This document shows, piece after piece, positions 14,786 through 33,066 of a stretch of DNA of 64,000 bases (the first letter of the stretch is position 1; each line of letters opens with the position of its first letter). The stretch is taken from contig CAZLEV010000007.1 of assembly GCA_964558645.1 (NCBI GenBank), positions 1 to 64,000 on the forward strand. Reading direction: 5' to 3'. The notes beneath the pieces were generated by a model. The model worked only from the letters and a program-made list of their open reading frames with translations, searched no databases and was not told where the DNA came from. The stretch is from an uncultured archaeon. Its GTDB lineage: Archaea > Asgardarchaeota > Thorarchaeia > Thorarchaeales > Thorarchaeaceae. The translations under genes and the position numbers were made by a program.

Positions 14786-16327
14786 CTAGACCTGTGTACA
14801 AAGACCAAACACCGATGTGTCTGTAGTCAGGGTCACCGGTTTCGCTTGGATATGCTTAGCTGTTCGCTGGTGGTAGGAGCTCTCCATCTTCAACAGAGTT
14901 GTGGGATTGAGAGCACCTACGGTCCGTACATACTCGAACTCGTAGTTTTGTTCGCAGAGCGACTGCTCGAACGCACGAATGAAGTCCAAACTCTGAACAT
15001 CATCGTGATTGAACATCGCGGCTACTTTGTACGATGCTATCCCATCTTCTATCACACCAACAACAGTGTAGTCTTGTACCTCTGCGCCTGTAACCTTACA
15101 CGCATAACCCATGGCCTTTGAGACATGCTTATCGCTGATCTTCTCACCGGCAAGACTCACGACGCGACCTTTGCGGCCGATGGAACTCACCATGTATGGG
15201 TCAGTGCCAGTGACTGTGACCAAGTCCCCGATGCGGTACCGTACATAACCCATGGTGTTTGTGATAACCATTTCATATCTATGGTTCTTCTTCAAGTCGG
15301 CCAGCGGTACAACCTCTGGTTGCTCCTTCTCTGTTTCGGTTTCGGGGATGAATTCTAAGTAGTTGGTGTGTGGTAGCAAGACAACCCCTTCCTCAGGCCA
15401 GAATTGGCAGCCATAGTATCCCTCAGACCCAGCATAGGCCTCCCACATCCAGGTGTTCGGAAGGGTCTTGCGAATCCACTCCCGATAAGGATCGGTGTCG
15501 ATCCCAGTTACAACCAGCTGCCTGAGCCTGGGCCAGAGCACTGAGATGTCCAGTGTGCCATCATCATTGAGAGCCTCACGTACTCGTTGTTCATACTTGG
15601 TTCCCTTATACTCCCGAAGAAGCCACGGGCCGTACTCGTTCTGCATGCGCCTGAAGAACGCCAAGCTCAAGGTCGTGATGCCTGCAAAGACGGTGATGTC
15701 TTGCTCGACTGCCACACGAGCGTACATCCGCATTTTACGCTCTAGGTCAGTTTCATTAAATATATCGGGACCGGGCTTTATCATACGCCTGAACAGGAAA
15801 TTTGCCCCGAGTTTTGGCGCTATTCCCGTCATATACCCAAGCGGAAGGTCGTGGTGCTTCTTCAGCTCTGCAGGGGCTCCGAACATGATGATCGATCCGT
15901 CGAAGATGGATGCATTATCCTCGTGTGCATCGATGAAGGTCATTTGGGTCGCAGTTGAGCCTGCCATCCAGCTACTCATGCCTCGTTTTGTAATTGGCAG
16001 TACTTTTGGATGGCCTGTTGACCCCGATGTCTGGACGTACCAGACCACAGGATCAGGACTCAGGATTTTCCCATCTGGATACTCATATACTCGCTCAAGA
16101 TAGGGCCTGTATGAGTGATAGTCCATGAGGGGAACCTCCTCTGCGAACTCCTCTGGTGTGTTCAATGTTCCAATTCCAAACTCCTTTCCGAGGACTGTAT
16201 CCCGGTGGAGTGTGATTATGTCTTCCAGCAACGCCTCTGTGGCCTCAACAGGATGAGAAATGATGTTGTTCAGCTTCCTCACCTTGCGTGATGCCATGAC
16301 CGAGACGAGCTTAGTCAGAATCGTCAA
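14786..16327 (-). CDS. GH3-family acyl-acid amido synthetase (adenylate-forming)
   Basis: QTSGSTGHPKVLP, YAGSEG and RYRIGD match the three GH3 nucleotide-binding motifs; C-terminal GRK..VSLAGEK. Confidence 0.85.
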   Translation of the reverse strand: MTILTKLVSVMASRKVRKLNNIISHPVEATEALLEDIITLHRDTVLGKEFGIGTLNTPEEFAEEVPLMDYHSYRPYLERVYEYPDGKILSPDPVVWYVQTSGSTGHPKVLPITKRGMSSWMAGSTATQMTFIDAHEDNASIFDGSIIMFGAPAELKKHHDLPLGYMTGIAPKLGANFLFRRMIKPGPDIFNETDLERKMRMYARVAVEQDITVFAGITTLSLAFFRRMQNEYGPWLLREYKGTKYEQRVREALNDDGTLDISVLWPRLRQLVVTGIDTDPYREWIRKTLPNTWMWEAYAGSEGYYGCQFWPEEGVVLLPHTNYLEFIPETETEKEQPEVVPLADLKKNHRYEMVITNTMGYVRYRIGDLVTVTGTDPYMVSSIGRKGRVVSLAGEKISDKHVSKAMGYACKVTGAEVQDYTVVGVIEDGIASYKVAAMFNHDDVQSLDFIRAFEQSLCEQNYEFEYVRTVGALNPTTLLKMESSYHQRTAKHIQAKPVTLTTDTSVFGLCTQV

Positions 16328-18941: not shown

Positions 18942-19607
18942 ATGTTACTTAGTCTACTTCCAGAGATGTGCTCGAGTCAGACGGTTGACTTGCTGAAGTC
19001 CATAAGCAGGTACAATACCGCAGACAGGGTACTCGTAAGCTCATTGAGCCACAGGTCATCTCTTACCATGCTCTGGGGGTTGCGGAGCACTATTCTCAAC
19101 ACGTTCGTTGAGCAGCCGCGGCGTTTCTTCCTTTGTGATATCCCTGCGCTAGTACCTGCTCTTGTTGCTATAACTCAGCCAGGAATACAGGGCGGCGCAA
19201 TTGTGCGGAACGATACCACGAAGGTCTACATGAGTTTCGATGATAGAAGCCCTATACATACGTTACGCACAGCATCACAAGTCCTTGCCATGTGGGATCG
19301 TCATTGTGAGCTGTTCTACGACTGCCTTTTGAAGGAGTCAGAAGACTTGCTTCCGGAAGCTACGCGCAGGCGATGGATGGATTTCCTCTCCTCTGCCTCA
19401 GGCTTGATTGCGGGATCGGCCGGTTGGTCGACGAACACACATAGGTCTACGGCGCTGAGGATTCTAGTGTCGACCGCTGACACGATGCTATGTTCTGCTT
19501 TCAGTCGAGAGCGTCTTCGGGACCCCCTGCTATCTTCAGTAGTCAACTTCCTGCATACTGAGCAGGCTTACCAGGCGCATCAGACTGCAGGGGGTGTTAC
19601 GGCATGA
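18942..19607 (+). CDS. Hypothetical protein, first gene of the recombination operon
   Basis: AGGTGA SD-like sequence at 18930; stop overlaps the next start (ATGA); no recognisable motif. Confidence 0.65.
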   Translation: MLLSLLPEMCSSQTVDLLKSISRYNTADRVLVSSLSHRSSLTMLWGLRSTILNTFVEQPRRFFLCDIPALVPALVAITQPGIQGGAIVRNDTTKVYMSFDDRSPIHTLRTASQVLAMWDRHCELFYDCLLKESEDLLPEATRRRWMDFLSSASGLIAGSAGWSTNTHRSTALRILVSTADTMLCSAFSRERLRDPLLSSVVNFLHTEQAYQAHQTAGGVTA

Positions 19608-20602
19608 CGTCACTTGAGAAGGTCAAAGATATCGGGCCGGTCACAGCCAAGCGCCTCGGGGATGCTGGAATACACAGCGCAGAACACCTTGCCATGATGG
19701 AAACACTACCAGTCCTAGATGAGCCAGGACCTGATAGGCTTGAGGAGCTTCAACGGCATGCTCGTAGGCTCATCTTCCCATCTGAGGTTGTGCCTTCTCA
19801 AGACATTGATTCAGGTCGTCACATTCGAACTGGTATTCGGGATCTTGACAAGATACTACTGGGAGGCCTTCGCACTGGGACAGTGATGCATATCCATGGG
19901 AAGTCGTCATCTGGAAAGACAACACTGTGTTGTCAGCTCGCGGTCCGGGCAAGTGCCCATGGTCGAGTCCTCTGGATAGACAGCGGGGCCACATTCAAGC
20001 CCTATCTGACGAGAACCATAGCCACAAGATGCGGATGGAATCCCGACTCAGTTCTGGACATGATCGACCACGCTTTGGCCATCACACAGTTCGACCTTGA
20101 AGAGATTGTCCAGAAGATGTACTCCCTCCTCTCTGATAGAAGGTCAGGATACGTGCTCTTGGTCATAGACTCGTTGTCCAGCATATTCCAGACGGAGTAC
20201 CTCGGGGTCACTTACAGTCTGGCTGCAAAGCGTGACCTTGGTCGCTTTCTTCGCCTCCTCTTCAAGATAGCGTTGGCCCACGATCTCTGTGTGGTCTTCA
20301 CGAATGGCGTCCATGAGAGCATCGGAAGTTACACCTGCCACGGTCAATACGAGCCGGATGCCGAGTTGGTTGTGAATTCTCTATCCACTACCGTGCTGAG
20401 TATGCGAAGGAGGAGGCGTAACGAGTACCGTATCACCGTCGAGAAGGGAGGAGTGGGGAACGACTCGGTACGCAACGTATCGGCGTACCTGGGCTACGGA
20501 GGATTCTACGACGAATCGAATCAAGCAAGAGACACTGAACTCTGGAGGACCGTCTATGAGTCCTCCGAGAATCTACGACTGATTATGGAGGAATCAAGAT
20601 GA
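19604..20602 (+). CDS. RadA/Rad51 paralog with N-terminal HhH (probably catalytically impaired)
   Basis: LEKVKDIGPVTAKRL (HhH), TGIRDLDKILLGG, Walker A GKSSSGKT, Walker B LLVIDS; DSG in place of DTE and TNG in place of TNQ. Confidence 0.85.
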   Translation: MTSLEKVKDIGPVTAKRLGDAGIHSAEHLAMMETLPVLDEPGPDRLEELQRHARRLIFPSEVVPSQDIDSGRHIRTGIRDLDKILLGGLRTGTVMHIHGKSSSGKTTLCCQLAVRASAHGRVLWIDSGATFKPYLTRTIATRCGWNPDSVLDMIDHALAITQFDLEEIVQKMYSLLSDRRSGYVLLVIDSLSSIFQTEYLGVTYSLAAKRDLGRFLRLLFKIALAHDLCVVFTNGVHESIGSYTCHGQYEPDAELVVNSLSTTVLSMRRRRRNEYRITVEKGGVGNDSVRNVSAYLGYGGFYDESNQARDTELWRTVYESSENLRLIMEESR

Positions 20603-21660
20603 CAGAACTAGAGGCCGTCATGGGCGTGGGCCCCGGTACAGCAAAGCAGCTGGAGAAAATCTTTGTGACCACAGCCGAACTACTGGCTGTTCAGAATCCT
20701 ATGGAACTGCAGAAGAAGACAACTCTCGGCGAAGGCACCGCTATCAAGATCGTCCGTAGTGCGCGAGAGCTGATGGGGATACACGGGTTCCAGAGCGGCA
20801 TAGACTTTGAGAAGAAGATGGCTGCGAAGAAACGATTGAAGTTCGGTATCCCTGATATTGACAAAGGGCTTCTCGGAGGTATCGAGGAGGGATCAATTGT
20901 GGAGATTTATGGCGCGGCACGTGGCGGAAAGACTCAGTGGTGCTCACATCTGGCTGTTCGAGCTCAGCTCCCCGTGGAGGAAGGTGGTCTAGGGGGAAGA
21001 GTCCTGTGGATGGACAGCGAGTCTTCGTTCAAACCATGGATCATTCGTGCCATAGCAATCAGACTTGGTCTTGATCCTGCAGTGGCCTTGGGCAATATCG
21101 GCATCTCGCAGATGATTCTCTCGTCACAGATTGCCGATACATTCGAAACCATTCCCAATCTCTGTGCTAGTCAAGACTACAAGCTAGTGATCATCGACTC
21201 TTTCAGTGGCTTGTTCAGAGCGGAATACACTGCATTGAATGACCTGAGCGTCCGACAGAAAGACATGAACTCCCTTCTGAATTCGATGCGTAGGGCTGGA
21301 ACCGCCACCGGAGCCATCTTCATCTATACCAACCAAGTGCTCAGCAACATAGGCAGCTACGGTTTCAGTGGACCAGGTCCCATAGGGGGACACATCCTTG
21401 CTCATGGCTGTGATTATAGATTCTATACGCGGCTCGGCAAGCCCCCACTACGAAAACTCCGGCTTGTTGACAACGCTGGTGTTCCTGAGTTTGACGCCAC
21501 GACTGTTCTTGGTTGGGGTGGTTTTTACGAGAACCAGAAACAGAGGACTGCTGGGGAGAAGAAAATTGAGGAATACATCGAGAAGAAAGGTTGGAATGCT
21601 CGTCTGATGCCTGATGGATCTGTTGTGGAAACAGGGATGGAGGAGGATGAGAAGGAGTGA
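20599..21660 (+). CDS. radA: Full-length divergent RadA/Rad51-type recombinase
   Basis: HhH N-domain, GFQSG (FxxA-like), EIYGAARGGKTQ, QLPVEEGGLGG, DSE, LVIIDS..LFRAEY, RQ, TNQV, PIGGHILAH. Divergent, so it may not be the housekeeping radA. Confidence 0.88.
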   Translation: MTELEAVMGVGPGTAKQLEKIFVTTAELLAVQNPMELQKKTTLGEGTAIKIVRSARELMGIHGFQSGIDFEKKMAAKKRLKFGIPDIDKGLLGGIEEGSIVEIYGAARGGKTQWCSHLAVRAQLPVEEGGLGGRVLWMDSESSFKPWIIRAIAIRLGLDPAVALGNIGISQMILSSQIADTFETIPNLCASQDYKLVIIDSFSGLFRAEYTALNDLSVRQKDMNSLLNSMRRAGTATGAIFIYTNQVLSNIGSYGFSGPGPIGGHILAHGCDYRFYTRLGKPPLRKLRLVDNAGVPEFDATTVLGWGGFYENQKQRTAGEKKIEEYIEKKGWNARLMPDGSVVETGMEEDEKE

Positions 21661-22058
21661 CAGTGTTCTACGTGTACCGATGTAATGCCTGTCACCAGCT
21701 TGGCTTTCAGCAGCACGAAGGACTTCGTAGCCTGAGCTGCAGTGTTTGTGGTGCGGACATCGAGGAGTACATTCGTGCCCCGAATCTAGAGCAGGCTCGT
21801 CTAGTAATGTCGTCGCTGTCAGCTGAGAGTTCACAGCAAGTACGGCCGATTAGTCGCGGTAGAGGTGTTCAGGCACGCGTGCTGGATATAGTTGAATGCT
21901 TGGTCGATGGAAATCGGGGCCGCCCCGTACGAGTTTCAGCTGTACTTAACGAGTGCAGTGATGCAGATATTCCCACGGAACGCGCATGGCATTTCCTGAA
22001 TCGGTTAGAGGCCATAGAAAGAATCCGTCTGGTAGGGAAGGAGGTTACTTTGCTATGA
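21657..22058 (+). CDS. Zinc-ribbon + winged-helix protein
   Basis: CNAC...CSVC; C-terminal 'RVLDIVECL...VSAVLNEC..ADIPTERAWHFLNRLEAIERI' wHTH pattern; GTGA and ATGA overlaps. Confidence 0.72.
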   Translation: MTVFYVYRCNACHQLGFQQHEGLRSLSCSVCGADIEEYIRAPNLEQARLVMSSLSAESSQQVRPISRGRGVQARVLDIVECLVDGNRGRPVRVSAVLNECSDADIPTERAWHFLNRLEAIERIRLVGKEVTLL

Positions 22059-22645
22059 CAGCTGTCTCAGATGCCTCTCCTGCACATAACCTAATCCGCC
22101 TCGTGAACTTCTCACGCCGTAGTGGTAAGGAACGACTTGCGCTGGTCAGACTTCCAGGATATGTGGAGCTCAACCCGGAGATCTATCTCATTACTCGGGT
22201 GAACTGGCGATCTGAAGATTTCGAATCCCCGATACTGCCGTATCTCCCCCGGCTCCTTGCTATCATCGAGAGTGCTCGTGGTTCTGACGCAGTGCCCACT
22301 GAAGTAAACCTCGAGTCACTAGAGGGCGTCATGGTTCATATCCCCACGGGTGTCCGTTTCTCGGATATCCCGGAAGAACGGGGAAAGAGCATTAGTTTTC
22401 TGGTGAGGCTGATGCAGGACACCGCCCAGTTCTTCTATGACACTGTGGATGAAGTGGTCGCTTACTTCTGGAAGGCCGCAAGGCAACGCGGGTTCAGCCG
22501 ACGCATTGTCGAAAGAATGGGTAGGAAGGAACAGGGCTTTACTTCCCCATTTCAGCTGAGGCAATTCGAGGAGTTGCTACATGCATACTTCTCTGTGAAG
22601 TTCATGGTTCAGAAATCCGAGTCAAAGCTCAGGTGGGAGCGATAA
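22055..22645 (+). CDS. Hypothetical protein
   Basis: ATG 22055 overlaps the upstream TGA, with GGAGG SD upstream; no recognisable motif. Confidence 0.7.
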   Translation: MTAVSDASPAHNLIRLVNFSRRSGKERLALVRLPGYVELNPEIYLITRVNWRSEDFESPILPYLPRLLAIIESARGSDAVPTEVNLESLEGVMVHIPTGVRFSDIPEERGKSISFLVRLMQDTAQFFYDTVDEVVAYFWKAARQRGFSRRIVERMGRKEQGFTSPFQLRQFEELLHAYFSVKFMVQKSESKLRWER

Positions 22646-22646
22646 G

Positions 22647-24599
22647 ATGATTTCAGGAACGTATCTCGACCCGGTTCACGATGTGTTTCCGTATAGATTA
22701 CGAGATGGGCAGCAGACCGCCATAGAGTACGCCGCAGATATTTTCAGGAGTGGCAAGATCGGGTTGCTCTCTGCAGACTGTGGAGTGGGAAAGACAATAG
22801 CAGTACTCAGTGCCTTTGTGGGGGCAAGGTTGAATCACGAGAAGGCTCGACTGGTGGTACTCACCCGGACTCATAGTCAATCGAGCGTGTTCGAAGAGGA
22901 GTGTCTTACACTTGCCGACCGATTCCCGATAATCGGCACTAGTATGGTGAGCAGAGTTCATGTCTGTCCCAATGTCGGAGAGATTAACAAGATGAGCGAT
23001 CTCGGCTTTATCCGAGGGTGTGCTTATCTTGTCAGGACCGGGAAGTGTTCATACTATCATAGTTTCTACGATGCACGAGGTGATAGAGGCCAACTGCGAG
23101 AGAACGCCCACGCGGCAATAGAAGAAGCAGTGGCACGGTCAGTTGTTGACCGCAGCACAGCAGAGGGTGTTTCTAGGGATTGGGGAATATGCCCCTACGA
23201 ACTCTTGCGGTGGTGTGCGAAGAGAAGCAATGTGATCATAGGACCGTACGCCTACTTGTTGAAGAGTCGTGTGCGAGAGGCATTCCTCTCATCATTGGAC
23301 CTTTCAATCGATGAGATTGACCTGTTAGTAGATGAGGCCCATAACCTTCCCGAGCAGATGGCCGAATCTGAGTCTGCTTCAATCACCGGGCAAGACATCC
23401 AATGGCTGAGAGAGCACAAACACGACCTCTCACGAGAAACCGGCTACGAATGGTTAGAGGACGTCATAGAGTTCCTTTGGGACACATTCACCTTGAACAC
23501 GGGTCGACTGCATCATGGCGGCGAGCAAGAGCTCAACATCTGGGAGGTACTTCCAAGGTTTGCAGTTGAGGCGGACATATCATTGCTGCTTACTAAGACT
23601 GGATATGTGCAGAGTGGTGATGATGTAATCGCGGCCGAAACACCTGCTGACCGTCTCTTGGACTTCTTGTATACGGCAATCTTAGCTTCAGAGTCTAGCG
23701 ACCAAGATGACTGGCACATAACTTTTGAGACAGGCAGAACGTGGGACGAGAATCCTCGCCTTTCCCATACGAGGCTGTGTATCCGCCCCCTGAACACCGC
23801 AGGATTATGCTCCTATCTCGTACACAGTACGCGATCTGCTGTCCTGATGAGCGGGACGCTTCGGCCAACCAGTCACTATGCAACAATCCTTGGCATGCGG
23901 GACGCTGAAGTCTGTGACATAGCCAGTCCCTATCCGGTCGGGTCGCGACTCGTGCTGATAGACAAGAATCTGAACACGGCCTACAAGAACCGTTCTCCTT
24001 CACTGTATGGGGCTCTTGCTAAGAATCTCTCACTAGTACTCACACATAGTCCTGCAAACAAGAGTGCCGTTGTTGCTTTCTCCAGCTATGCCATCATGAA
24101 TGATGTCTTGAGCTACGGCGTTGAAGACGGTTTTCGGAGGCGAGTAGTGGAAGAGCGCCATGCGCGAGTTGACGATATACGGGAGATGCTCTTGGAAGAG
24201 CCTTCTGTGCTATACTCTGTCTATGGCGGCAAGTTCTCGGAAGGAGTCGACCTAGTAGATGGGGGTGCGAGTCTCCTGGACCTTGTTGTTGGTGTTGGAA
24301 TCCCGTTTGCCCCACCAACCTCGTATCATCTAGCGCTGCAATCATGGTACAACCGAAGGCTTGGTGAGGGTCGAGGTTACTATTACGCAGCGGTGATGCC
24401 CGCCCTTCGGAGGGTGGTCCAACTAGTGGGGCGTTTGAGACGTTCTCCTGCAGACCTTGGTGTGGTGGTATTGCTTGACAACAGGTTTCTGCGGCATGTT
24501 TCCATGCTGGGTCCGCGTGCAGCAGCTGATACTTGGCCCTATTCCACAGAGGACGAGCTTATTGAGGCAATCGAGATGTTCTGGAGGAATGCTACTTGA
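22647..24599 (+). CDS. XPD/Rad3/DinG-family Fe-S cluster DNA helicase
   Basis: Q motif RDGQ, ADCGVGKT, four Fe-S cysteines (HVCPN, RGCA, GKCSY, ICPYE), DEAHNL, MSGTL, SEGVD, GIPF, QLVGRLRR, LLDNRF. Confidence 0.92.
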   Translation: MISGTYLDPVHDVFPYRLRDGQQTAIEYAADIFRSGKIGLLSADCGVGKTIAVLSAFVGARLNHEKARLVVLTRTHSQSSVFEEECLTLADRFPIIGTSMVSRVHVCPNVGEINKMSDLGFIRGCAYLVRTGKCSYYHSFYDARGDRGQLRENAHAAIEEAVARSVVDRSTAEGVSRDWGICPYELLRWCAKRSNVIIGPYAYLLKSRVREAFLSSLDLSIDEIDLLVDEAHNLPEQMAESESASITGQDIQWLREHKHDLSRETGYEWLEDVIEFLWDTFTLNTGRLHHGGEQELNIWEVLPRFAVEADISLLLTKTGYVQSGDDVIAAETPADRLLDFLYTAILASESSDQDDWHITFETGRTWDENPRLSHTRLCIRPLNTAGLCSYLVHSTRSAVLMSGTLRPTSHYATILGMRDAEVCDIASPYPVGSRLVLIDKNLNTAYKNRSPSLYGALAKNLSLVLTHSPANKSAVVAFSSYAIMNDVLSYGVEDGFRRRVVEERHARVDDIREMLLEEPSVLYSVYGGKFSEGVDLVDGGASLLDLVVGVGIPFAPPTSYHLALQSWYNRRLGEGRGYYYAAVMPALRRVVQLVGRLRRSPADLGVVVLLDNRFLRHVSMLGPRAAADTWPYSTEDELIEAIEMFWRNAT

Positions 24600-25189
24600 G
24601 AGAGCAACTGAGCTGGTTGGCTACTATTGGCGTACCGATTGCACTGGCATCGGGCTGGGTGTTACGTTTGGTCTTCGATAGATCGTTGCATTCAGTGCTT
24701 CTATCTCTTGCTGGATTAGGCATCGTAGTGATAGCCATCATTCTCATGCTGATCTCTACCAAGTATGTGCGATACTGGGATGAGGAGAATAACATACTTG
24801 TAGATACGGGGCCCTTTACAGTCGAAGTATCAATTCTAGTGCTATTCGATAGGATTCCTATCGGAATCACCCTGTCTCACTCAGCCAAGCGTGTTCTACT
24901 GGCTATGCATGATCATTATCATCATTCGAGGGGGGGAGCGGTCACATTCATTCTCGCACGACCGGTGGGCAACTCGCGGACTCGACTGGGGTTCAAAGTG
25001 ACTCGGCGGGGCCTTCGTATTCCACTTGCTGACACTTTCGAGCGTTTGAGGGATCGGGTAGTCGAGGATGCTCATGTCCTGCGTGCTGCCATGAATGCAG
25101 CTTACCCTCATGTCGCCATTGCCATGGGTAACTTGGCCGACTCGGTTCTAGCAGATTCAGGAGGTATTGAAGAGATTGAAGCAGTTTGA
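24596..25189 (+). CDS. Hypothetical membrane protein (2 N-terminal TM helices + soluble domain)
   Basis: TTGA overlap with the helicase stop and GGAGG upstream; two hydrophobic helices in aa ~5-55. Confidence 0.7.
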   Translation: MREQLSWLATIGVPIALASGWVLRLVFDRSLHSVLLSLAGLGIVVIAIILMLISTKYVRYWDEENNILVDTGPFTVEVSILVLFDRIPIGITLSHSAKRVLLAMHDHYHHSRGGAVTFILARPVGNSRTRLGFKVTRRGLRIPLADTFERLRDRVVEDAHVLRAAMNAAYPHVAIAMGNLADSVLADSGGIEEIEAV

Positions 25190-25454
25190 AAGCATTGAGA
25201 TTCCTGTTGGTGTAGACTCCGAAGATGTGATGGACGCCATGAAAGGACTGTCCTACTCATGGACCGTTTTACTGAATGACCCACTCAATGCAGTGGGACG
25301 TTCCAAGATTTACCCGCCTGTAGCTCTGATGCATGACCGTGTACTCATCGAACAGGACGAAACCCGCACCATTCAACGCGTGAGAGGACTTCTTCGTGCT
25401 ATGAGCTCACTCTCTACGGAGGGAATGCACGGTAAGCGCGGTGTGTCGCCATGA
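25167..25454 (+). CDS. Small hypothetical protein
   Basis: GGAGG SD before TTG; stop overlaps the next ATG; fills the operon gap. Confidence 0.55.
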   Translation: MKRLKQFESIEIPVGVDSEDVMDAMKGLSYSWTVLLNDPLNAVGRSKIYPPVALMHDRVLIEQDETRTIQRVRGLLRAMSSLSTEGMHGKRGVSP

Positions 25455-27781
25455 GTCATGTTCTTGGATCGAAGCCCACGAAGGACCCTCTTGAAGAAGT
25501 CAAAGGTGCAAGATATGCAGTACAAGAAAGCGTTGACATAAAGTGGGTTGACCGCAAGGCGAGTAGACCGTGGGAGATTGTAGCACTCTGTAGCCTGGCT
25601 TCACTCCTGGCCAGCATGATTGCACCATATTTGGTTATTGCAGGTTCAGGAGTCGTCCTATTGCTTCTGGTCTACTTCCACTCATTCAGACCTATCGAGA
25701 TGTATGAACGGGCTGGACTCGTGAAGGTCAAGGAGAGCAACCTGGAGTTTTCCAGACCTGATACAAGAAACGGTTCTGTCAGATATCTTCGAAAGACCCA
25801 CAACAATCCCTCAGTGTACTTGACCGGACTAAGGCTGGACGCCCCAGGTGCTTTCCTTAGTGGCGATATGAGCCGGCTCGTCAGAGGCGTACCGACATCT
25901 GCCGGACTCTTTGTAAGTGTACGAATGGTTCCGGCTAAGCTACGTGCGATTGTCAACGAGAACACGATATCTGGTGCTCACGAAGCATATCTGGATCATC
26001 TGGAACACGACGCTTTGTGTGGTTATTTCCAGAAACGTGGCGGGCTCTGGCAGAGTTCCGTGCAGGTGATTCTGCAATCCAATGAACTATCGACACTTGC
26101 TAGGTGTCGTAACGCAGTCAAGGGTGCGATTCCATCGCGAAACTGGAAGGATCTGACATGGGTTCAGAAGAAGAGTCTCGAGTCGCTACGATCAGCACCT
26201 AGTATGGAAGCGTTTTATGCTCTGGGAATTGAACTCAGTGAATGGCTTGTCCAGATGAGGACCGAGCTAGCAGCTGAAGTAGGTGAGTCGGTACCAGGGC
26301 AGTTTGTTGCACCTATTAGAGAACAATCCGACCAATACTATCTTGGAAGAATACTCAATCCTGACACCTTGGAGTTAGGTCCTCGAACAGGGCCGACTTA
26401 CCAAAACATCAGGACTGGGATGATCATCTGCGGAGGTGATTATTCTCTACGCAGGCGTATACAAGCCTTAACGATGCAGGCTCTTGTGCAGGACGGGAAG
26501 CGATTAGTTCTGATAAGCACAAATCCCATGGCTGACGAGCTGGTTGCACTCAGCGACAGCGGAGTAATACTACGCCTCGGTTCGGACTTGATACTGAACC
26601 CGGTTGACTCAGACGGAATAGACCGTACCACATACTTACCCCGACTCATCACAGCTCTAGAGATTGTTGCAGGAAAAGACTTGAGTAATGCTCCGATGTT
26701 CGAGGGGGCGCTTTCGCGAGCCGTAGCTCTGAATGATACGACCATTGCAGATGTAAGAATTCAGAGCGACGACCCCATGGGTGGAGACCCCTCGGTCAGC
26801 AGTCGTGAGGACAGGGAGCAGAACGATGCTTCACGGGCCGGGATGGCTGCTATCCAGACGCTCCTAGAGGGCAGTGCCGCTCGAGCCTTCTACGGACATC
26901 AGACCGTACCAATATCTGCTCTAGGCGAGCATGAACTGACCATCGTGAAGGTTGGACTCGGTTCAGAACCTTTGGACATCTTTGCACTTGACCTGCTTGC
27001 GTTGAAGCTTCTCACACTGGAAGATGAGAATCTCGTCGTAGTCTTCGACGACGCCGAGAACTTCCTTGTTGATAATGTAAAGTACAGGAAACGGAGTCTC
27101 TTTGCCCAACGACTGGTTCGGGAACTACTCCAACGTTTCGGGGTGGTACTTTCAGTTGAACACCCATTCGAGATCCCTGCGCGTATCACCAACAGCATTG
27201 AGACTGTTATTGCCGGGCGGACAAAGGGTGGCGACAACGTGGCAGTTGTATCAGAACTGCTCGGGTTGAAGGTGATTGAGACTGGTATGCATAGCAAGGC
27301 ACGGTGGTCTGCTAGAGAGAGTTCGTTCCTACGAGTGATGGATGATGACATTGTGCTCATAGTGAACGGCTCTGAGACCTGCAGACCCATGCGTCTCTTC
27401 GAAGAGCCCGACCTCATTGTGGACGATCTGGCATCTTTGAGGGAACGGAGCAGGTCTCTCACCAAGTCGAGAAGATCTCATGCTTCCCATTCTGGGAGGT
27501 TGGTGGACCAACTCGGCGATGACGTCGGTATCAACATGAGAGTGCTTGAGCTCTTGGATCAGTATGAGCCCCTTACAGAGGAGGCAATTGGGAAGTTCAT
27601 TTCGGCGCAAGATGAGGAGGATGTGGATGTCAAGGCTGTGTTGATGCGTCTTGAGGAAGGTAATATGATTCTCCCAGGCCATGAACAGCATGCGGGAGTG
27701 TCCTACAAGAACTTCAGGCTGACCATGAAGGGACGGATGGCTCTGAAACAGAGTGAACACTCAGGAGATGATGTGTCCTGA
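25451..27781 (+). CDS. Membrane-anchored HerA/VirB4/TrwB-like protein with degenerate Walker A and C-terminal wHTH
   Basis: 2 TM helices (aa ~42-78); 'YYLGRI', 'GMIICGGDYSLRRR' at the Walker A position, 'LILNP', Walker B-like VVVFDDAENF, 'RELLQRFGVVLSVEHP..IPARITNSIETVI'; C-terminal 'FRLTMKGR' wHTH. Confidence 0.68.
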   Translation: MSHVLGSKPTKDPLEEVKGARYAVQESVDIKWVDRKASRPWEIVALCSLASLLASMIAPYLVIAGSGVVLLLLVYFHSFRPIEMYERAGLVKVKESNLEFSRPDTRNGSVRYLRKTHNNPSVYLTGLRLDAPGAFLSGDMSRLVRGVPTSAGLFVSVRMVPAKLRAIVNENTISGAHEAYLDHLEHDALCGYFQKRGGLWQSSVQVILQSNELSTLARCRNAVKGAIPSRNWKDLTWVQKKSLESLRSAPSMEAFYALGIELSEWLVQMRTELAAEVGESVPGQFVAPIREQSDQYYLGRILNPDTLELGPRTGPTYQNIRTGMIICGGDYSLRRRIQALTMQALVQDGKRLVLISTNPMADELVALSDSGVILRLGSDLILNPVDSDGIDRTTYLPRLITALEIVAGKDLSNAPMFEGALSRAVALNDTTIADVRIQSDDPMGGDPSVSSREDREQNDASRAGMAAIQTLLEGSAARAFYGHQTVPISALGEHELTIVKVGLGSEPLDIFALDLLALKLLTLEDENLVVVFDDAENFLVDNVKYRKRSLFAQRLVRELLQRFGVVLSVEHPFEIPARITNSIETVIAGRTKGGDNVAVVSELLGLKVIETGMHSKARWSARESSFLRVMDDDIVLIVNGSETCRPMRLFEEPDLIVDDLASLRERSRSLTKSRRSHASHSGRLVDQLGDDVGINMRVLELLDQYEPLTEEAIGKFISAQDEEDVDVKAVLMRLEEGNMILPGHEQHAGVSYKNFRLTMKGRMALKQSEHSGDDVS

Positions 27782-29991
27782 CAGCAACGAGTTCCTCTGA
27801 GGATACTATACGCGCCGATGTGCAGGCTCTCTTGACGCGTGTGGGATTGAAGCCCAAGGGTGTCCAGGTTGATGCGATTGAGAATGGTCTGTTGGATGGA
27901 ACAAGTATCATGGTTTCTTCCCCAACAGGGTCGGGAAAGACACTGATAGGAGAAATGGCTTTGCTGCGCGCAGTCTTTGAGGGCCGTAAGGGGCTCTATA
28001 TCGTACCCCTGCGTGCACTCGCTCGACAGGTCGCAACCACTCTGCGAGAACGATATCAGACTCTCACTGGCCTGACGGTGGGTCTCAGTACTGGTGATTA
28101 CCAGCAGGGCGGGGACGAGCTAAGCGAGAACGACATCATCGTCACTACCTACGAACGTGCTGATTCTCTCTTGCGTCATCGCACAGATTGGCTCGATGAT
28201 ATCGGAACACTGGTCATCGATGAGATACAGAACTTGGACGACGTGAACCGCGGCCCTCGCCTCGAGACTGTGATCATGCGTATGCGACGGAGCATTCCTG
28301 ACAACCTACAGATTGTTGCTCTCTCCGCCACCGTGGGTGCACCTGATGAGTTGGCTGAGTGGCTTGGATGCAGGCTTGTAGAGTCGAACGAACGCCCTGT
28401 GCCGCTCCAATGTGCCGTTCTAGAGACTGCTGACCGTCAGGAAACCATCACAAGAGTGGTGATGTCAACCGTGAGGAGCAATGGGCAGGTGCTTGTGTTC
28501 GTGAGGACACGGGCATCAACAGAGTCCATGGCAGAAAGGCTAGCACCAAGTGTGACCAGGCAGCTCACCTCACGGGAGAGGGATTCGATAGTGAGTGAAC
28601 TTCAGAGCATTGAGCATTTTGGAACCACCGTTCCATTAACACTCCAGACGCTTCTCGAGTCTGGTGTTGCCTACCATCACGCTGGGTTAGACGCTCTAAC
28701 AAGGCGTCTTGTTGAAACTATGTTCCAGAAAGGGATGGTGAGATTGGTATGTTCTACTACAACTTTGGGCTCTGGCATGAATCTCCCTGCTCGTACGGTG
28801 ATAGTAAGCAGTGTGCGCAGTCCTGGTAATCATAGCGACTACATCGATACGAACAGGTTACACCAAATGCTCGGACGTGCAGGGCGGCCAGGAAAGGATA
28901 CGAAAGGCTTCGGTGTGGTGATAACTGAGAGCCGTGGAGAGGCAGAAATGGTGAAGTCTAGATACTTCATTGAGGGTGCTGGTGGCCTCGAGCCGAAGTT
29001 CTCAAGGATAGACAGTGCACTGAATAAGCCTGCTGCGCTAACCGAACAGCTCCTTGTTGCCCTCGACTTTCTTGGGGGGGCGGACTTGGAAACAATTGAA
29101 CATGATTACTTTGCTGATAGCTACCTGCAATTTCTAGCCGTTCGAGATACCATGGCTCCCATGAGGAGCTTCATCTTCGAAGAGGTCTCAGCAGTCGCCG
29201 TAATCGAGAAGCACGCACTTAGTGGAACCGTGCGAGCTGCTCGGCAATCTGTATTGGGTGCCGTGGACATACGAGAGGTTTCTGACTCCGTGATCGGTGG
29301 TCTCGTATCAGATGGTGGCAGCAATGCGTCCTGCCGATTCTCGATCAGACGAGACGAGAACGGCATGTCCGAGGGGGCGATGTGTAGTTGTGGCCGGCCT
29401 CTTGACGAATCGAGGGTTCTCTGCCCACATCTTGTGAATCTCGGTTTCTATGCTGCCCAGAAGTATCAAGAGATTGCCGACTACGTTATCCCCTTGTCAC
29501 TAAGTGAGTCAAGTCCTGTTCGGATCCTCGTTCGGATGGGGCTGATTGAAGGCGGGCAAAAGGGTCTGCGAGCGACACATCTTGGAAAGATAGTTTCGAG
29601 GCTTTACTTGAGCCCGGGGACAGTACGAGAGATACTGCCGCTGCTTCCGCTTACAGAAAGCAATATCGACCTGCTTGACCTATTGAAGATAGCCGCAAGG
29701 TGTGAGGGTGGGCAAACAGGCGTTGACCTAGAATTCATTGTGGGCACAGTGGTTTCCACTTCTATGCCCGTGGAAGAGATAGCTGAAACATGTGGCTTGC
29801 ATATCGGGGATGTCTATGCACTTCTGGACCTAACTGTTTGGCTGCTCTATGGCATCGCGGCTATTGCCGAGGCCGGGAACATGAAGCGAGTCGCAGAGAT
29901 GGCATGGGATGTCTACCGGCGAATAGAGGAACGACGAGGAGGAAAGTATGATGGAGGCGACAGAGAAGAGAGCGATAGAAGAACCGACTGA
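27778..29991 (+). CDS. Hel308/Ski2-family SF2 helicase with inserted SWIM zinc finger
   Basis: SPTGSGKT, YIVPLRALA, TGD, DEIQ, LSAT, YHHAGL, TTTLGSGMNLPA, QMLGRAGRPG; CSC-x10-CPH at 29383-29430. Start tentatively CTG 27778 (track start GTG 27820). Confidence 0.9.
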   Translation: MTATSSSEDTIRADVQALLTRVGLKPKGVQVDAIENGLLDGTSIMVSSPTGSGKTLIGEMALLRAVFEGRKGLYIVPLRALARQVATTLRERYQTLTGLTVGLSTGDYQQGGDELSENDIIVTTYERADSLLRHRTDWLDDIGTLVIDEIQNLDDVNRGPRLETVIMRMRRSIPDNLQIVALSATVGAPDELAEWLGCRLVESNERPVPLQCAVLETADRQETITRVVMSTVRSNGQVLVFVRTRASTESMAERLAPSVTRQLTSRERDSIVSELQSIEHFGTTVPLTLQTLLESGVAYHHAGLDALTRRLVETMFQKGMVRLVCSTTTLGSGMNLPARTVIVSSVRSPGNHSDYIDTNRLHQMLGRAGRPGKDTKGFGVVITESRGEAEMVKSRYFIEGAGGLEPKFSRIDSALNKPAALTEQLLVALDFLGGADLETIEHDYFADSYLQFLAVRDTMAPMRSFIFEEVSAVAVIEKHALSGTVRAARQSVLGAVDIREVSDSVIGGLVSDGGSNASCRFSIRRDENGMSEGAMCSCGRPLDESRVLCPHLVNLGFYAAQKYQEIADYVIPLSLSESSPVRILVRMGLIEGGQKGLRATHLGKIVSRLYLSPGTVREILPLLPLTESNIDLLDLLKIAARCEGGQTGVDLEFIVGTVVSTSMPVEEIAETCGLHIGDVYALLDLTVWLLYGIAAIAEAGNMKRVAEMAWDVYRRIEERRGGKYDGGDREESDRRTD

Positions 29992-31570
29992 GGAACATCC
30001 TGAAACAGAGTCTGAGGAAACTCCTGCAGAGACTGACAGTGACGTAGCGTGTATAATGAATAAGATGGGTTACACCACCCACCAGTTTGCGAATGGACTC
30101 TTGGCTGGTACTGATTACATCGGAATCAAAGGTACAAACTCAGTCTTGGTTGACACATTGATTGTTCTCGACCTTCGTAGTAGCAAGTTTGGTAGAAGTC
30201 CCCTTGCCATGAAGAGTGAGGTTTTGGAGGTTGCAACTCAGCCACTGGAACGGTTGTTGAACACTGTGAACTCAGGCGAACGTCTACAGCTACGAAAAGT
30301 TCCCACTGTCTGCGGGACACTGGAAATTCCTATGCTATTATCTGAGAGTGGCGATAACGGGTCGGAGGTTTTCGAGTCGAGATCTGCATATGTCATTGTT
30401 GATGGTGTTCGCCCTTCATCGGACTTCGATTGGTTTGCCGATGAGAGTCGAATCATAGGCTTGGATGAGTTCTCCCTCTGTGTGAATAGCAGCCGACGAA
30501 CGCGTGTCACTGAACTGTCCAAGAGTATAGACTCGAAGAAATGGGACCATATGAAAAAGAGCGTGCGGGGGTGGTATCTGGTCGCAGCACTGATCTTCGC
30601 AGCTGCAAACATTCTCGCTCTGCTCTCCGTGGCGTCACTCTTCTCTCTGCTTCTTCTCGTGGGCGACATACTGTTTATGATGTTCTTCTTTGCGGTGACA
30701 CGAAAGGCTGTCAATGATTTTCGTTCCACATGCCAGGTTGAACGGCAGGCTACGAAGAACATCGGTGATATGACCCGGTTCAAGAGAGGCTTGGAAGAGA
30801 ATAAGCAAGATCTGGAAATGATGGCCGAGCTGAATTTCGTCATATCTCCAATGGTATCTCTTGCTGCGCGCTCTCTCGCTAAGGACGACCTGGATAGTGC
30901 TGTGGAGATCATCGACCAAATCTTTACTGAATGCATTCTCAGATCGAGTTCTGTTGACAATGACTATTCTGGAGATAAGGGTCTTGCCAAGTTCATCGGC
31001 CTATTCGAGGGACTGGGAGTTCCAGGTATCAAAAAACAGAAAGAAGGAATTGCCCTCTCATACGTCGCACTGACAGGACACGTAACGAATCCTCTCTCAG
31101 AAGAGGAATTCATCAAGCATATCACCCTCCTCAATGATGTTCTGTTCCAAGCTGGACTTCTGCGTGCAGAGGCCAAGAGCACAGTCGATGACACAATCAA
31201 CTATCACTGTCTTGGCAAGGCTGTTCAAACTCTTGACGAGGAAATCGTTGACACCGATCCCGAACTAACCGGGAGAACGGCGGAGGAGAATCTTGTTTCT
31301 GACATTGAGGAGAGCGGTGAGGCGGCTGCCAAACAAGACGCCATCTCCGTTGAGGAGACAACGGTGAAAGAACCACCTTGTTCTGTGGATGACAGATCCG
31401 ATGAAGAAGGGCCAGAATATGCCAGCTCTGAGACCCCGCAAGACGCGGTTGATAGTGTTGCACCCGAGCCGATTGTCACGGGCCCCGAAGTTGTGAGTCG
31501 TCGCAGGAATAGCCTTGCGGAGGCTGACGGGCCAACAACAAGTGCTGCACTGAAGACGGAGGACGAATAA
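29948..31570 (+). CDS. Hypothetical membrane protein (central TM hairpin, acidic disordered termini)
   Basis: Two adjacent hydrophobic helices (aa ~208-251) followed by a helical region; E/T/S/P-rich N- and C-termini. Confidence 0.7.
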   Translation: MMEATEKRAIEEPTEEHPETESEETPAETDSDVACIMNKMGYTTHQFANGLLAGTDYIGIKGTNSVLVDTLIVLDLRSSKFGRSPLAMKSEVLEVATQPLERLLNTVNSGERLQLRKVPTVCGTLEIPMLLSESGDNGSEVFESRSAYVIVDGVRPSSDFDWFADESRIIGLDEFSLCVNSSRRTRVTELSKSIDSKKWDHMKKSVRGWYLVAALIFAAANILALLSVASLFSLLLLVGDILFMMFFFAVTRKAVNDFRSTCQVERQATKNIGDMTRFKRGLEENKQDLEMMAELNFVISPMVSLAARSLAKDDLDSAVEIIDQIFTECILRSSSVDNDYSGDKGLAKFIGLFEGLGVPGIKKQKEGIALSYVALTGHVTNPLSEEEFIKHITLLNDVLFQAGLLRAEAKSTVDDTINYHCLGKAVQTLDEEIVDTDPELTGRTAEENLVSDIEESGEAAAKQDAISVEETTVKEPPCSVDDRSDEEGPEYASSETPQDAVDSVAPEPIVTGPEVVSRRRNSLAEADGPTTSAALKTEDE

Positions 31571-32194
31571 GTGTCCGACGCGGGTATCCTGAAAGGGTTC
31601 GTGCACATTTCCGGGATTGGAGGTTCTGGAAAGACACTCTTGTGCTCCGCGATTGCCGCAAAACGGTCTCTTGAGGGTCATGTCCTCTGGTTCTGCCTTG
31701 ACGGAAAATACGCCTTCATCAAGACTCTGAAAAATATGTTTGATGCATATGCCGGTTTCAAGGACAATCTGACCATCCTCGTGACGCAGGATGGAGCGGA
31801 CGCAACTGAGACTCTCCTGACACTACGGGAGAGACTGCGTGATAACACGAAAACCATTGTCATTGATCCTATTACGAGAGTGCTTCATATGGGTCAGCGA
31901 GATGGTTCCCCTTGGGGACGTGAGCTCATCGAGGAGGTGCTACCTACCATTGCAGCTTTATCACTGTCAAGAGGTATTATGGTAGTTGTCACCAATCAAA
32001 TTCGGGAACTGAATGGAAACCAGGTGCCAGTATATCATGCGGCGATTAAGAAATGGGCTGATGTTGACCTGCAGCTTGAGACTGATGGTTCCACAGACGT
32101 CTTCTCTCTCCTCGACAATGAAAGCGATAGATGCTGGAGATTCAGAATTGCGAACAACAGGGTGAGTTTTGAGGAGGAGGGCGTAGTTCTGTGA
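31571..32194 (+). CDS. RadB/Rad51-paralog-like short RecA-fold ATPase
   Basis: VHISGIGGSGKT, IVIDPIT, VVVTNQIR; no N-terminal HhH domain. Confidence 0.8.
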   Translation: MSDAGILKGFVHISGIGGSGKTLLCSAIAAKRSLEGHVLWFCLDGKYAFIKTLKNMFDAYAGFKDNLTILVTQDGADATETLLTLRERLRDNTKTIVIDPITRVLHMGQRDGSPWGRELIEEVLPTIAALSLSRGIMVVVTNQIRELNGNQVPVYHAAIKKWADVDLQLETDGSTDVFSLLDNESDRCWRFRIANNRVSFEEEGVVL

Positions 32195-33066
32195 TCGGCA
32201 TACTTCGCATTGCCAAGCACGTTGTTGCAGCAGCTGTAGTCTTGGCACTGGGCGCTGAATTGCTGGCCTTGACAACTTCTATTGTCGTTCTGGTTAGACT
32301 CGGAAACATAACCCCACTAATCGTGTTGGCTGTCCTAACGTTTGGGATAATCTACCAGTCCGGACGGATGAAGACAGAGGAGGGTAAGAAGTTGAACCTC
32401 GCAAAGACGGTACTTGATGCGATGTCTCTTGTTCTCGGAGGAATGCTCTGTCTAACAATTTTCTTTATTGCACTGCCCTCCGGGATAGTTATGCTGCTCG
32501 GCTCGATAGGAGGCACCTGTGTCCTGATGGCTCTAGTCCGGAATCCCGGGAAGATCTCCATGGTCGTGTCAATGCCCTATGCCTCAGTACTTCGACATGA
32601 TATCTCTTCTCTGAACCTTCGGGTTTTCGAGCTTGAGAAGGGTCAGCGTGAGGGCGTCCTTCGAATGCTGGATGAGAGAAGTCTTCTTCGAGTCAGTATC
32701 TGGATACTTCAAGACCTTGACACCATAATATTCCCAACGCGTCACTCAGAGAGTGTTCGTGGGGTGCTAGATGAGTATGGTCTCCAATATAGTCGAATGG
32801 ATATGCTGCTCGAATCTGCTGTGTTAGCCCTTCCACTCAGCGATAGCGTTCGGCCTGAAGAATATGTGAGTCTTGTTCCGTCATTGAGAGAGAGAGTTAT
32901 CGAGAGATGGCCTGTGCGTATGATGCTTTTCCCCTCTCCAGAAGGAGTTTCAGTTCTTGTTCCTCGCAGTATTGTTCGAGGGATGCCTACTGAACCACTC
33001 TCGTCTGGTCAGGCATACCGTGCAGTGGTCTGCCATGAGCTGGTAACAGGTGATAACCTTGCCTAG
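32191..33066 (+). CDS. Hypothetical membrane protein (4 N-terminal TM helices + soluble domain)
   Basis: Four hydrophobic segments in aa 1-118; GTGA overlap and GGAGG SD. Confidence 0.7.
   Translation: MIGILRIAKHVVAAAVVLALGAELLALTTSIVVLVRLGNITPLIVLAVLTFGIIYQSGRMKTEEGKKLNLAKTVLDAMSLVLGGMLCLTIFFIALPSGIVMLLGSIGGTCVLMALVRNPGKISMVVSMPYASVLRHDISSLNLRVFELEKGQREGVLRMLDERSLLRVSIWILQDLDTIIFPTRHSESVRGVLDEYGLQYSRMDMLLESAVLALPLSDSVRPEEYVSLVPSLRERVIERWPVRMMLFPSPEGVSVLVPRSIVRGMPTEPLSSGQAYRAVVCHELVTGDNLA

Follow-up and report, generated by a model that had tools for sequence, protein, structure and literature searches.

Canonical RadA, as represented by Pyrococcus furiosus RadA/Rad51 (1pzn), and the RAD51 and DMC1 proteins are composed of an N-terminal helical/HhH domain, a linker with a polymerisation Phe and a RecA core. 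RadB, aRadC and the Sulfolobus RadA paralogues are extra RecA folds found beside RadA, and they are thought to modulate recombination. These proteins are core-only and have no N-terminal domain. The RadB from Haloferax is proposed as a mediator (PMC5480776). Rad55-Rad57, RAD51B/C/D and XRCC2/3 are duplicates of the recombinase, some of them with a degenerate ATPase, and they form heteromers that, going by the titles of the structures 9svx, 9q29 and 9zzr, bind or cap filaments. An interaction of HELQ with the BCDX2 complex has also been described (PMC13623763). In eukaryotic recombination a central part is played by paralogues of this kind, which have lost catalysis and mediate or cap filaments; they arose long ago, and how they did so is difficult to trace. 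Besides, second RadA clades have been reported in Heimdall-, Gerd-, Njord- and Lokiarchaeia (PMC12722695), in a paper whose main text makes no mention of Thorarchaeia; in a literature search, neither a second RadA of Thorarchaeia nor its operon was found to be described.

The window analysed here (the whole stretch of 64,000 nucleotides, from a member of the Thorarchaeia) contains two adjacent genes of this family, P1 and P2, which are listed in the table with the rest of their operon. The overlap between both genes is preceded, 7-12 nt upstream, by the sequence GGAGGA, and these two elements suggest that the translation of P1 and P2 is coupled. RadA2, the family to which P2 belongs, is the third gene in a conserved operon of ~16 genes, which also encodes membrane proteins. 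Eight further genomes of the Thorarchaeia (L037-L043, L045) share the gene order, and L044 shares part of it. Neither tRNA genes nor Rfam families were found in the window. P1 and P2 gave no matches with the known anti-phage defence models of PADLOC, and the operon gave just generic DinG-like and HamB-like matches for its two helicases; a reading of the pair or the operon as a defence system was dropped, as nothing specific to it was found in PADLOC.

Features of the P1/P2 locus, in order along the window
Feature	Position	Strand	Description
Conserved operon around P1/P2	18942..34771	+	gene order shared with other Thorarchaeia genomes
221-aa gene		+	operon gene 1, before P1
P1	19604..20602	+	332 aa, full-length RadA2-derived paralogue
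ATGA, P1 stop/P2 start overlap (4 nt)	20599..20602	+	read directly from the sequence
P2	20599..21660	+	353 aa, Thorarchaeia RadA2 protein
133-aa gene		+	directly after P2
219-aa gene		+	after the 133-aa gene
XPD/DinG-like helicase		+	after the 219-aa gene
197-aa gene		+	after the XPD/DinG-like helicase
776-aa gene		+	after the 197-aa gene
Hel308-like helicase		+	after the 776-aa gene
540-aa gene		+	after the Hel308-like helicase
Small RecA fold	31571-32194	+	after the 540-aa gene
291-aa gene		+	between the small RecA fold and the P-loop-less Rad51 fold
P-loop-less Rad51 fold	33050-33778	+	after the 291-aa gene
XPG/FEN1-like nuclease		+	last listed, after the P-loop-less Rad51 fold

Both proteins are members of the Rad51/RadA superfamily (Pfam Rad51 PF08423: 106 bits for P1 and 159 bits for P2, cut-off 22). 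They can be aligned with each other over their full length (29% identity, E 5e-41) and with RadA/RAD51 models from residue 2-8 onward, which bears out the original prediction of two adjacent full-length RadA-type genes; the matches with Pfam HHH_5 are weak, 20.4 and 19.8 bits, under the cut-off of 27. RadA2 is defined here as a clade with 100/100 support in the maximum likelihood tree, characterised by a C-terminal GWGGFY-type motif and the signature RVLWxD(S/T)..FKP, and these features are found in both P1 and P2. GWGGFY, RVLWxDS and FKP are common to P1 and RadA2 and missing from RadA. In an exhaustive HMMER search against 1.84 billion representatives, the best non-self matches of P1 were all RadA2 proteins (130, then 95-104 bits). 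The grouping of P1 and P2 in one private family is supported. The motifs proposed as shared are also present (DSGATFKP and LGYGGFYDE in P1, DSESSFKP and LGWGGFYEN in P2). Among them, IGSY does occur in both proteins, but other P1 sequences have VGGF, IGGL or YGHY in its place and it is not a family character. Many RadA2 proteins are labelled simply 'RadA' in public sources, an automatic annotation that can now be corrected.

The canonical RadA of this genome is encoded on another contig (C1:147782-148495; Pfam 314 bits). It passes the equivalog test for RadA proper, which P1 and P2 fail: with NCBIfam NF003301 (cut-off 259) the C1 gene, P2 and P1 score 477.1, 219.9 and 115.1 bits, respectively, and with TIGR02236 (cut-off 361) 462.0, 202.9 and 95.8 bits. 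Neither P1 nor P2 is the housekeeping recombinase. They are not RadB or core-only proteins either: P1 and P2 reach 89.8 and 58.8 bits with the RadB model TIGR02237 (cut-off 172) and have 332 and 353 aa with an N-domain, instead of about 210-240 aa without it. Separate RadB-like and core-only paralogues are also present in this genome (L004, L005).

As in canonical RadA, the Walker A and B motifs, the catalytic Glu (E141), the L1 Arg, the L2 Gln (Q246), the GGH His (H265) and the ATP-cap Asp (D291) are all kept in P2, including the previously noted DSE, TNQ and GFQSG motifs and the Walker A sequence GAARGGKT. The polymerisation Phe is F64 (FQSG), and the C-terminus carries the GWGGFY motif of the family and an acidic tail. 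The catalytic residues show no variation in 117-120 of 120 relatives, dN/dS is 0.10 and the best solved match is 1pzn (188 bits). With the residue set of an active RadA-type recombinase complete, P2 is predicted from its sequence to be active. About 50 of 71 Thorarchaeia genomes carry RadA2; orthologues of P2 are present in most genomes of the class, with 50-64% identity, and the best matches outside it reach 33-38%. Of the 70 genomes with a completeness of 80% or more, about 20 gave no match to RadA2 or the operon; one of these is a single contig, and canonical RadA is kept in all of them. RadA2 is a Thorarchaeia-specific family of full-length RadA paralogues that exists alongside the ordinary RadA, and it constitutes a class-wide second recombinase tied to an operon of Hel308/XPD/FEN1 type. 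A position of RadA2 as the closest archaeal kin of the eukaryotic recombinases was rejected. Such a link had 82/85 support with one DMC1-like sequence and collapsed to a polytomy with seven, and it is therefore treated as long-branch attraction; in the tree with seven DMC1-type sequences, the Asgard RadA backbone is unresolved and gives rise to RadA2 and to the eukaryotes as separate branches.

P1 retains the N-terminal helical/HhH domain, Walker A (GKSSSGKT) and Walker B (LLVIDS), and at its C-terminus a long helix comes after GYGGFY. The polymerisation Phe had been reported as missing from P1, which proved wrong: after a 4-residue deletion, F58 (LIFPSE) aligns with F64 of P2 in both BLAST and MAFFT alignments, and it is invariant in the four P1-type sequences. 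P1 has lost the catalytic Glu (DSG) and the L2 Gln (TNG), as originally read, and also GGH (now DAE), the ATP-cap Asp, the L1 Arg (FQTEY) and seven residues of the QLPxxxGGL loop. The Glu and the Gln are missing in all four sequences with variable replacements (DSG/DSS, TNG/TNA), and from the residue set of an active recombinase only Walker A/B and the Phe are kept, again in four of four. In P0123 the Walker A motif has GKM in place of GKT, so even nucleotide binding may be dispensable for P1. Its dN/dS of 0.35 is the highest within the operon, which indicates relaxed constraint; P1 is nevertheless under purifying selection. The ORF is intact (331-332 aa) in four lineages, with 175 invariant columns down to 56% identity, and therefore the term 'eroded' suits the catalytic residues of P1 but not the gene, which is conserved. 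The fold is predicted with pLDDT 87 and pTM 0.85 from a 95-sequence alignment (the four P1 sequences alone gave an unusable pLDDT of 44), and the model matches filament-form RAD51 as a full protomer, N-domain included (TM 0.80, rmsd 3.0 over 325 columns). A foreign origin of P1 was rejected on composition, its GC and GC3 being like those of the neighbouring genes.

Orthologues of P1 were found only in G074 (86% identity), P0121 (90%) and P0123 (56%), and most RadA2-bearing genomes lack it; in G073, of the same genus and 87% complete, neither P1 nor P2 was found. In other genera the second position of the operon is occupied by an unrelated ORF of ~150 aa. A profile of this ORF found nothing in this genome (G000) or in G074, and it did find the gene in the control G053. 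The ORF has no Pfam match, and the possibility that it is a remnant or relative of P1 was rejected (hhalign probability 0.3%). P1 is a recent addition, found only in close relatives, in place of an unrelated ~150-aa gene. On the contig with the 56% orthologue (L115) the similarity to the operon ends 20 codons into P2, for which reason this contig is uninformative on the adjacency of both genes; the break may be real or may come from a chimera in a short assembly. The P1-bearing operons and those with the 150-aa gene form a tractable pair for a comparison of what a mediator needs.

Taking these data together, P2 is probably the complete RadA2 and P1 a young offshoot that acts as a non-catalytic partner of a RadA-type assembly. 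P2 would be an ATP-binding and ATP-hydrolysing protein that assembles on DNA into filaments like those of RadA, serving the DNA transaction of the helicase/nuclease operon. Most simply, P1 would stem from P2 by tandem duplication and would then have gone through a burst of change, displacing the ~150-aa second gene. The parts expected to allow docking on a RadA assembly (N-domain, polymerisation Phe, core fold, P-loop and RadA2 C-terminal motif) are retained, and those expected to hydrolyse ATP in cis (Glu, Gln), to act in trans on the site of the neighbour (GGH His, cap Asp) and to contact DNA in L1/L2 are lost. This combination makes P1 most likely a non-catalytic subunit, which as an inert protein would most probably serve RadA2 as structural partner or as cap. 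Produced together with P2 by way of the ATGA overlap, P1 would attach to an oligomer of P2 (or RadA) at one end or on one face, and could nucleate, stabilise or cap it. It is also possible, if somewhat doubtful, that P1 and P2 pair obligately into a heteromer, a fresh ATPase-dead copy having assumed the function of an unrelated accessory subunit of ~150 aa. If that were true, the locus would repeat, recently and in an archaeon, the route to the Rad55-57/RAD51-paralogue caps, with the 'before' (other genera) and the 'after' (this lineage) both extant in the same operon.

With regard to the origin of P1, its recruitment by recombination or transfer from an older divergent RadA2 lineage outside the operon, with no local tandem duplication, seems unlikely. 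The maximum likelihood tree does place P1 not beside P2 but with other divergent, partly degenerate RadA2 copies (96/95; L098, L099, L102, L082/L084, P0125, P0127), which in other genera sit outside the operon next to TPR, ThiF and GH3-like genes, and several of which also lack Glu, Gln or GGH. Nevertheless, this group is made of long branches with convergently relaxed sites, the stem of P1 alone having 2.0-2.5 substitutions per site, and long-branch attraction is a likely cause of the placement. A tree constrained to have P1 and P2 as sisters is 9.07 lnL units worse, and the AU test does not reject it (p 0.146). Furthermore, no such extra RadA2 copy was found in this genome and the GC3 of P1 matches the operon. 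Recent gene conversion between P1 and P2 was considered as well and rejected: the sole nucleotide match is a stretch of 37 nt in register, with 78% identity, over the conserved RVLWxDS..F, and IGSY is not conserved among P1 orthologues.

With regard to function, the pair had been interpreted as an active recombinase with a mediator. The pattern of losses in P1 does fit a non-catalytic partner, but P2 is not the main recombinase and P1 is a late arrival. That P2 should be the working recombinase of the organism and P1 its Rad55/57-like mediator is very unlikely: all catalytic motifs are kept by P2 and lost by P1, and translation of both appears coupled, but it is the C1 gene that passes the equivalog cut-off, the genomes in which RadA2 and its operon were not found all have canonical RadA, and P1 is absent from most genomes with RadA2. 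It is just as improbable that P1 is a copy without function that is decaying into a pseudogene. The loss of catalytic and DNA-loop residues, the very long stem branch, the highest dN/dS of the operon and the missing Walker A Thr in P0123 would agree with decay; against it, the frame is intact in four lineages with many invariant columns, dN/dS is well under 1, the start/stop coupling with P2 is preserved, the fold is confidently predicted, and P1 took the place of another gene instead of being inserted and then falling into decay. Rather unlikely, finally, is an action of P1 on canonical RadA instead of P2, as filament cap or anti-recombinase. The whole family has the polymerisation Phe and the core fold in common, and RAD51-paralogue complexes cap RAD51 filaments according to the titles of the solved structures mentioned above, but the C-terminal motif and helix of P1 are specific to RadA2 and its translation appears coupled to P2, not to RadA. 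The non-catalytic partner of RadA2 is the reading retained, and with it an Asgard lineage would display at shallow depth the trajectory of the eukaryotic paralogues: a putative duplicate has shed the residues for hydrolysis and trans-activation and is still under selection.

Compared with the known systems, P1 and P2 have the layout of canonical RadA, RAD51 and DMC1. P2 differs from canonical RadA in sequence (about 35% identity to the RadA of its own genome), in the GWGGFY motif and acidic C-terminal tail, and in being confined to Thorarchaeia and to one operon; P1 differs also in the absence of catalytic and trans residues. Like RadB, aRadC and the Sulfolobus paralogues, they are extra RecA folds beside RadA, but both are full length. 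The second RadA proteins of other Asgard archaea are likewise full-length duplicates; in the trees built here the duplicate RadA copies of non-Thor Asgard genomes sit inside the canonical RadA clade, and RadA2 forms a clade of its own with a long stem. As with HELQ and BCDX2, a Hel308-like helicase and several RecA folds are combined, here within one operon. The eukaryotic RAD51 paralogues are of independent origin, and P1-P2 is a putative counterpart of the heteromers that they form.

The sequence under study comes from a 3.63-Mb Thorarchaeota-type Asgard genome of 37 contigs, and the two adjacent RadA-type genes found on its contig C7, P1 and P2, constitute a real feature. An ATGA is common to the stop codon of P1 and the start codon of P2, with GGAGGA a short distance 5' of it. 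Both proteins match the Pfam Rad51 model (106 bits for P1 and 159 bits for P2), and they can be aligned with each other end to end (29% identity, E 5e-41). The motifs quoted in the original prediction are all present, with the exception of the Phe that P1 was supposed to lack: F58 (LIFPSE) occupies the polymerisation position once a 4-residue deletion is allowed for, and does not vary among the four P1-type sequences (P1 and its three orthologues).

Coordinates of the P1/P2 pair, its operon and related loci (window positions unless a locus is named)
Feature	Position	Strand	Description
P1	19604-20602	+	ORF, 332 aa
P2	20599-21660	+	ORF, 353 aa
RadA2 operon	18942-34771		In order: first gene (~220-320 aa), second-slot gene, RadA2, two small genes; XPD/DinG-like helicase, 776-aa protein, Hel308-like helicase; small RecA folds alternating with unannotated proteins, then XPG/FEN1-like nuclease
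Small RecA fold	31571-32194		Same operon as P1/P2; carries GIGGSGKT
P-loop-less Rad51 fold	33050-33778		Same operon as P1/P2; Pfam Rad51, 29 bits
GH3-like gene	14786-16327		Next to the operon
P2 counterpart in G074	L037:14902-15960		Genome of the same genus
~150-aa ORF, other genera	L038:2545-3009, L040:2601-3041, L042:2554-3018		Second slot; alignment A1
Contig with the 56% P1 orthologue	L115:1532-2503		2.5-kb Logan contig
Divergent RadA2 copies, other Thorarchaeia genera	L116:2401-3411, L117:490-1533, L118:8589-9629, L119:8046-9086, L120:371-1393		Outside the operon
Canonical RadA	L001:1210-2217		Contig C1; frame of 336 aa

The Rad51 model detects six RecA-fold genes in this genome, the top match being a gene on contig C1 (314 bits). 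Against the NCBIfam RadA equivalog, whose cut-off is 259 bits, the C1 gene scores 477 bits, P2 220 bits and P1 115 bits; the housekeeping RadA is neither P1 nor P2. The remaining RecA-fold genes are the RadB-like L004, the core-only paralogue L005 and the P-loop-less Rad51 fold of the P1/P2 operon. In the canonical RadA frame a highly acidic stretch of ~25 residues precedes the HhH domain, which would be truncated if translation started at the first ATG/GTG/TTG of the frame.

P2 is a predicted class-specific second recombinase, and its family is here named RadA2. Among 301 Asgard genomes, the matches of P2 at 37-64% identity are restricted to the Thorarchaeia, and the best ones outside the class (33-38%) are comparable to the canonical RadA of its own genome (34-35%). 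More than 120 cluster representatives show 52-84% identity to P2; those with a name are nearly all from Thorarchaeota, and many are annotated as 'RadA'. Of 71 Thorarchaeia genomes with a completeness of 80% or more, about 50 carry the family; it is considered accessory because about 20 of 70 such genomes, among them the single-contig G010, gave no match to it and retain canonical RadA. In 120 P2 relatives the Walker A G/K/T, the catalytic Glu, the Walker B Asp and the L1 Arg are invariant, and the Gln (117), the GGH His (118), the cap Asp (119) and the polymerisation Phe (119) are almost so. RadA2 proteins can be recognised by a GWGGFY-type motif near the C-terminus with a charged tail behind it, a signature absent from canonical RadA. 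Some genomes, namely G055 (contigs C20, C144 and C188), G040 and G043, each contain at least three RadA2-type genes on separate contigs. Besides, the dS of P2 between the source genome and G074 is 1.54, compared with 0.27-0.52 for the flanking operon genes and 0.21 for P1; P2 seems to have had a different history in one of these genomes, for instance allelic replacement by recombination.

The gene order of the operon is common to eight of nine relatives compared over 20 kb and is partly kept in the ninth, G001; a literature search did not find the RadA2 family or its operon described. The GH3-like gene is conserved next to the operon wherever the latter is present, and the operon contains four RecA folds in the window versus three in other genera. 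In these genera an ORF of ~150 aa lies between the first gene and RadA2. It matches no Pfam family and does not resemble P1 in a profile comparison (hhalign probability 0.3%), and its profile finds no match in the source genome or G074, the control genome G053 being positive; therefore P1 took the place of that gene. Near its N-terminus there is an invariant W-x-x-G-A-x-x-G, loosely resembling the F-x-x-G/A polymerisation motif of RadA2/Rad51, and the protein could be a candidate binder of the RadA2 core.

P1 is a young offshoot of RadA2 restricted to close relatives. A search of 87 genomes of the class yielded a single orthologue, in G074 (86%), the remaining matches (27-33%) being the RadA2 of each genome; a collection of 5.8 billion proteins yielded only three P1-type proteins, at 90%, 86% and 56% identity. 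When 1.84 billion representatives were searched exhaustively with HMMER, the top match was P0123, the 56% orthologue, followed by RadA2 proteins (P0029 at 130 bits and six more at 94.7-104.3 bits), with P0130 (94.9 bits) as the lone canonical-type RadA among them; generic RadA/Rad51 proteins rank lower, all below 95 bits. On the Logan contig of the 56% orthologue, operon similarity stops 20 codons into P2, possibly because the contig is chimeric or P2 is disrupted there.

Retained throughout the four P1 sequences are the N-domain, F58, Walker A as GxxxxGK (which reads GKT in three of them and GKM in the 56% relative), Walker B, RVLWxDS..F(K/N)P and (L/M)GY(G/C)G(F/L)Y. None of the four has the catalytic Glu (the motif reads DSG or DSS), the L2 Gln (here TNG or TNA), GGH (replaced by DAE or DAK), the ATP-cap Asp or the first L1 Arg (FQTEY), and 7 residues of the QLPxxxGGL loop are missing. 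In the AlphaFold model (95-sequence alignment; pLDDT 87, pTM 0.85) a helical domain at the N-terminus precedes a RecA core whose L2 is disordered, and a long helix lies at the C-terminus; the model superposes on filament-form RAD51 with a TM of 0.80 (rmsd 3.0 over 325 columns). Purifying selection acts on P1: its Nei-Gojobori dN/dS between the source genome and G074 is 0.35, compared with 0.10 for P2 and 0.05-0.22 for other operon genes. Judged from these sequences, P1 appears to be a recent, catalytically dead yet selected duplicate.

RadA2 and P1 form a clade with 100/100 support, within which the operon-borne RadA2 genes, P2 included, constitute a 99/95 group. P1 itself joins (96/95) the long-branched RadA2 copies L098, L099, L102, L082/L084, P0125 and P0127, which lie in other genomic contexts and several of which have independently lost Glu, Gln or GGH. 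This placement is what would be expected if P1 had been recruited from a pre-existing divergent RadA2 copy, which is possible. However, the P1 stem measures 2.0-2.5 substitutions per site, the tree tool warns of long-branch joins, and a tree constrained to unite P1 with the neighbouring P2 is 9.07 lnL units worse and is not rejected (p-AU 0.146). The tandem position, the common orientation and the common composition (GC3 of P1 agrees with the operon) favour an origin by local duplication, after which a burst of change took place. The divergent RadA2 copies of other genera lie outside the operon, next to TPR, ThiF and GH3-like genes, and RadA2 seems to have given rise to degenerate paralogues on several occasions. 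A special link between RadA2 and eukaryotes was discarded, since in a tree with seven DMC1-type sequences RadA2 (98/100) and the eukaryotes (100/100) branch separately off an unresolved Asgard RadA backbone.

In RadA/Rad51 the ATP site sits at the interface between protomers: Glu and Gln work in cis, the following protomer supplies the GGH His and cap Asp in trans, and the linker Phe docks into the adjacent core. P1 retains the docking elements and lacks the cis and trans catalytic elements and the DNA-loop residues, so it could enter a RadA2 (or RadA) assembly but would be unable to propagate an active interface. These features fit, by analogy, a nucleating, stabilising or capping partner, which the ATGA overlap would deliver together with P2. 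The first proposal, a recombinase and its mediator, is too simple a description of the pair, which combines a predicted class-specific second recombinase and a probable recent duplicate.

The known archaeal RadA paralogues RadB and aRadC are core-only, whereas both proteins of the pair have the full RadA length and score below the RadB model cut-off. Second RadA clades have been described in Heimdall-, Gerd-, Njord- and Lokiarchaeia in a 2025 paper whose main text does not mention Thorarchaeia (PMC12722695). The proposed role of P1 resembles that of the RAD51-paralogue complexes of solved structure, which according to their PDB titles cap RAD51 filaments. P1/P2 represent a further case of a known theme, that of recombinase paralogues.
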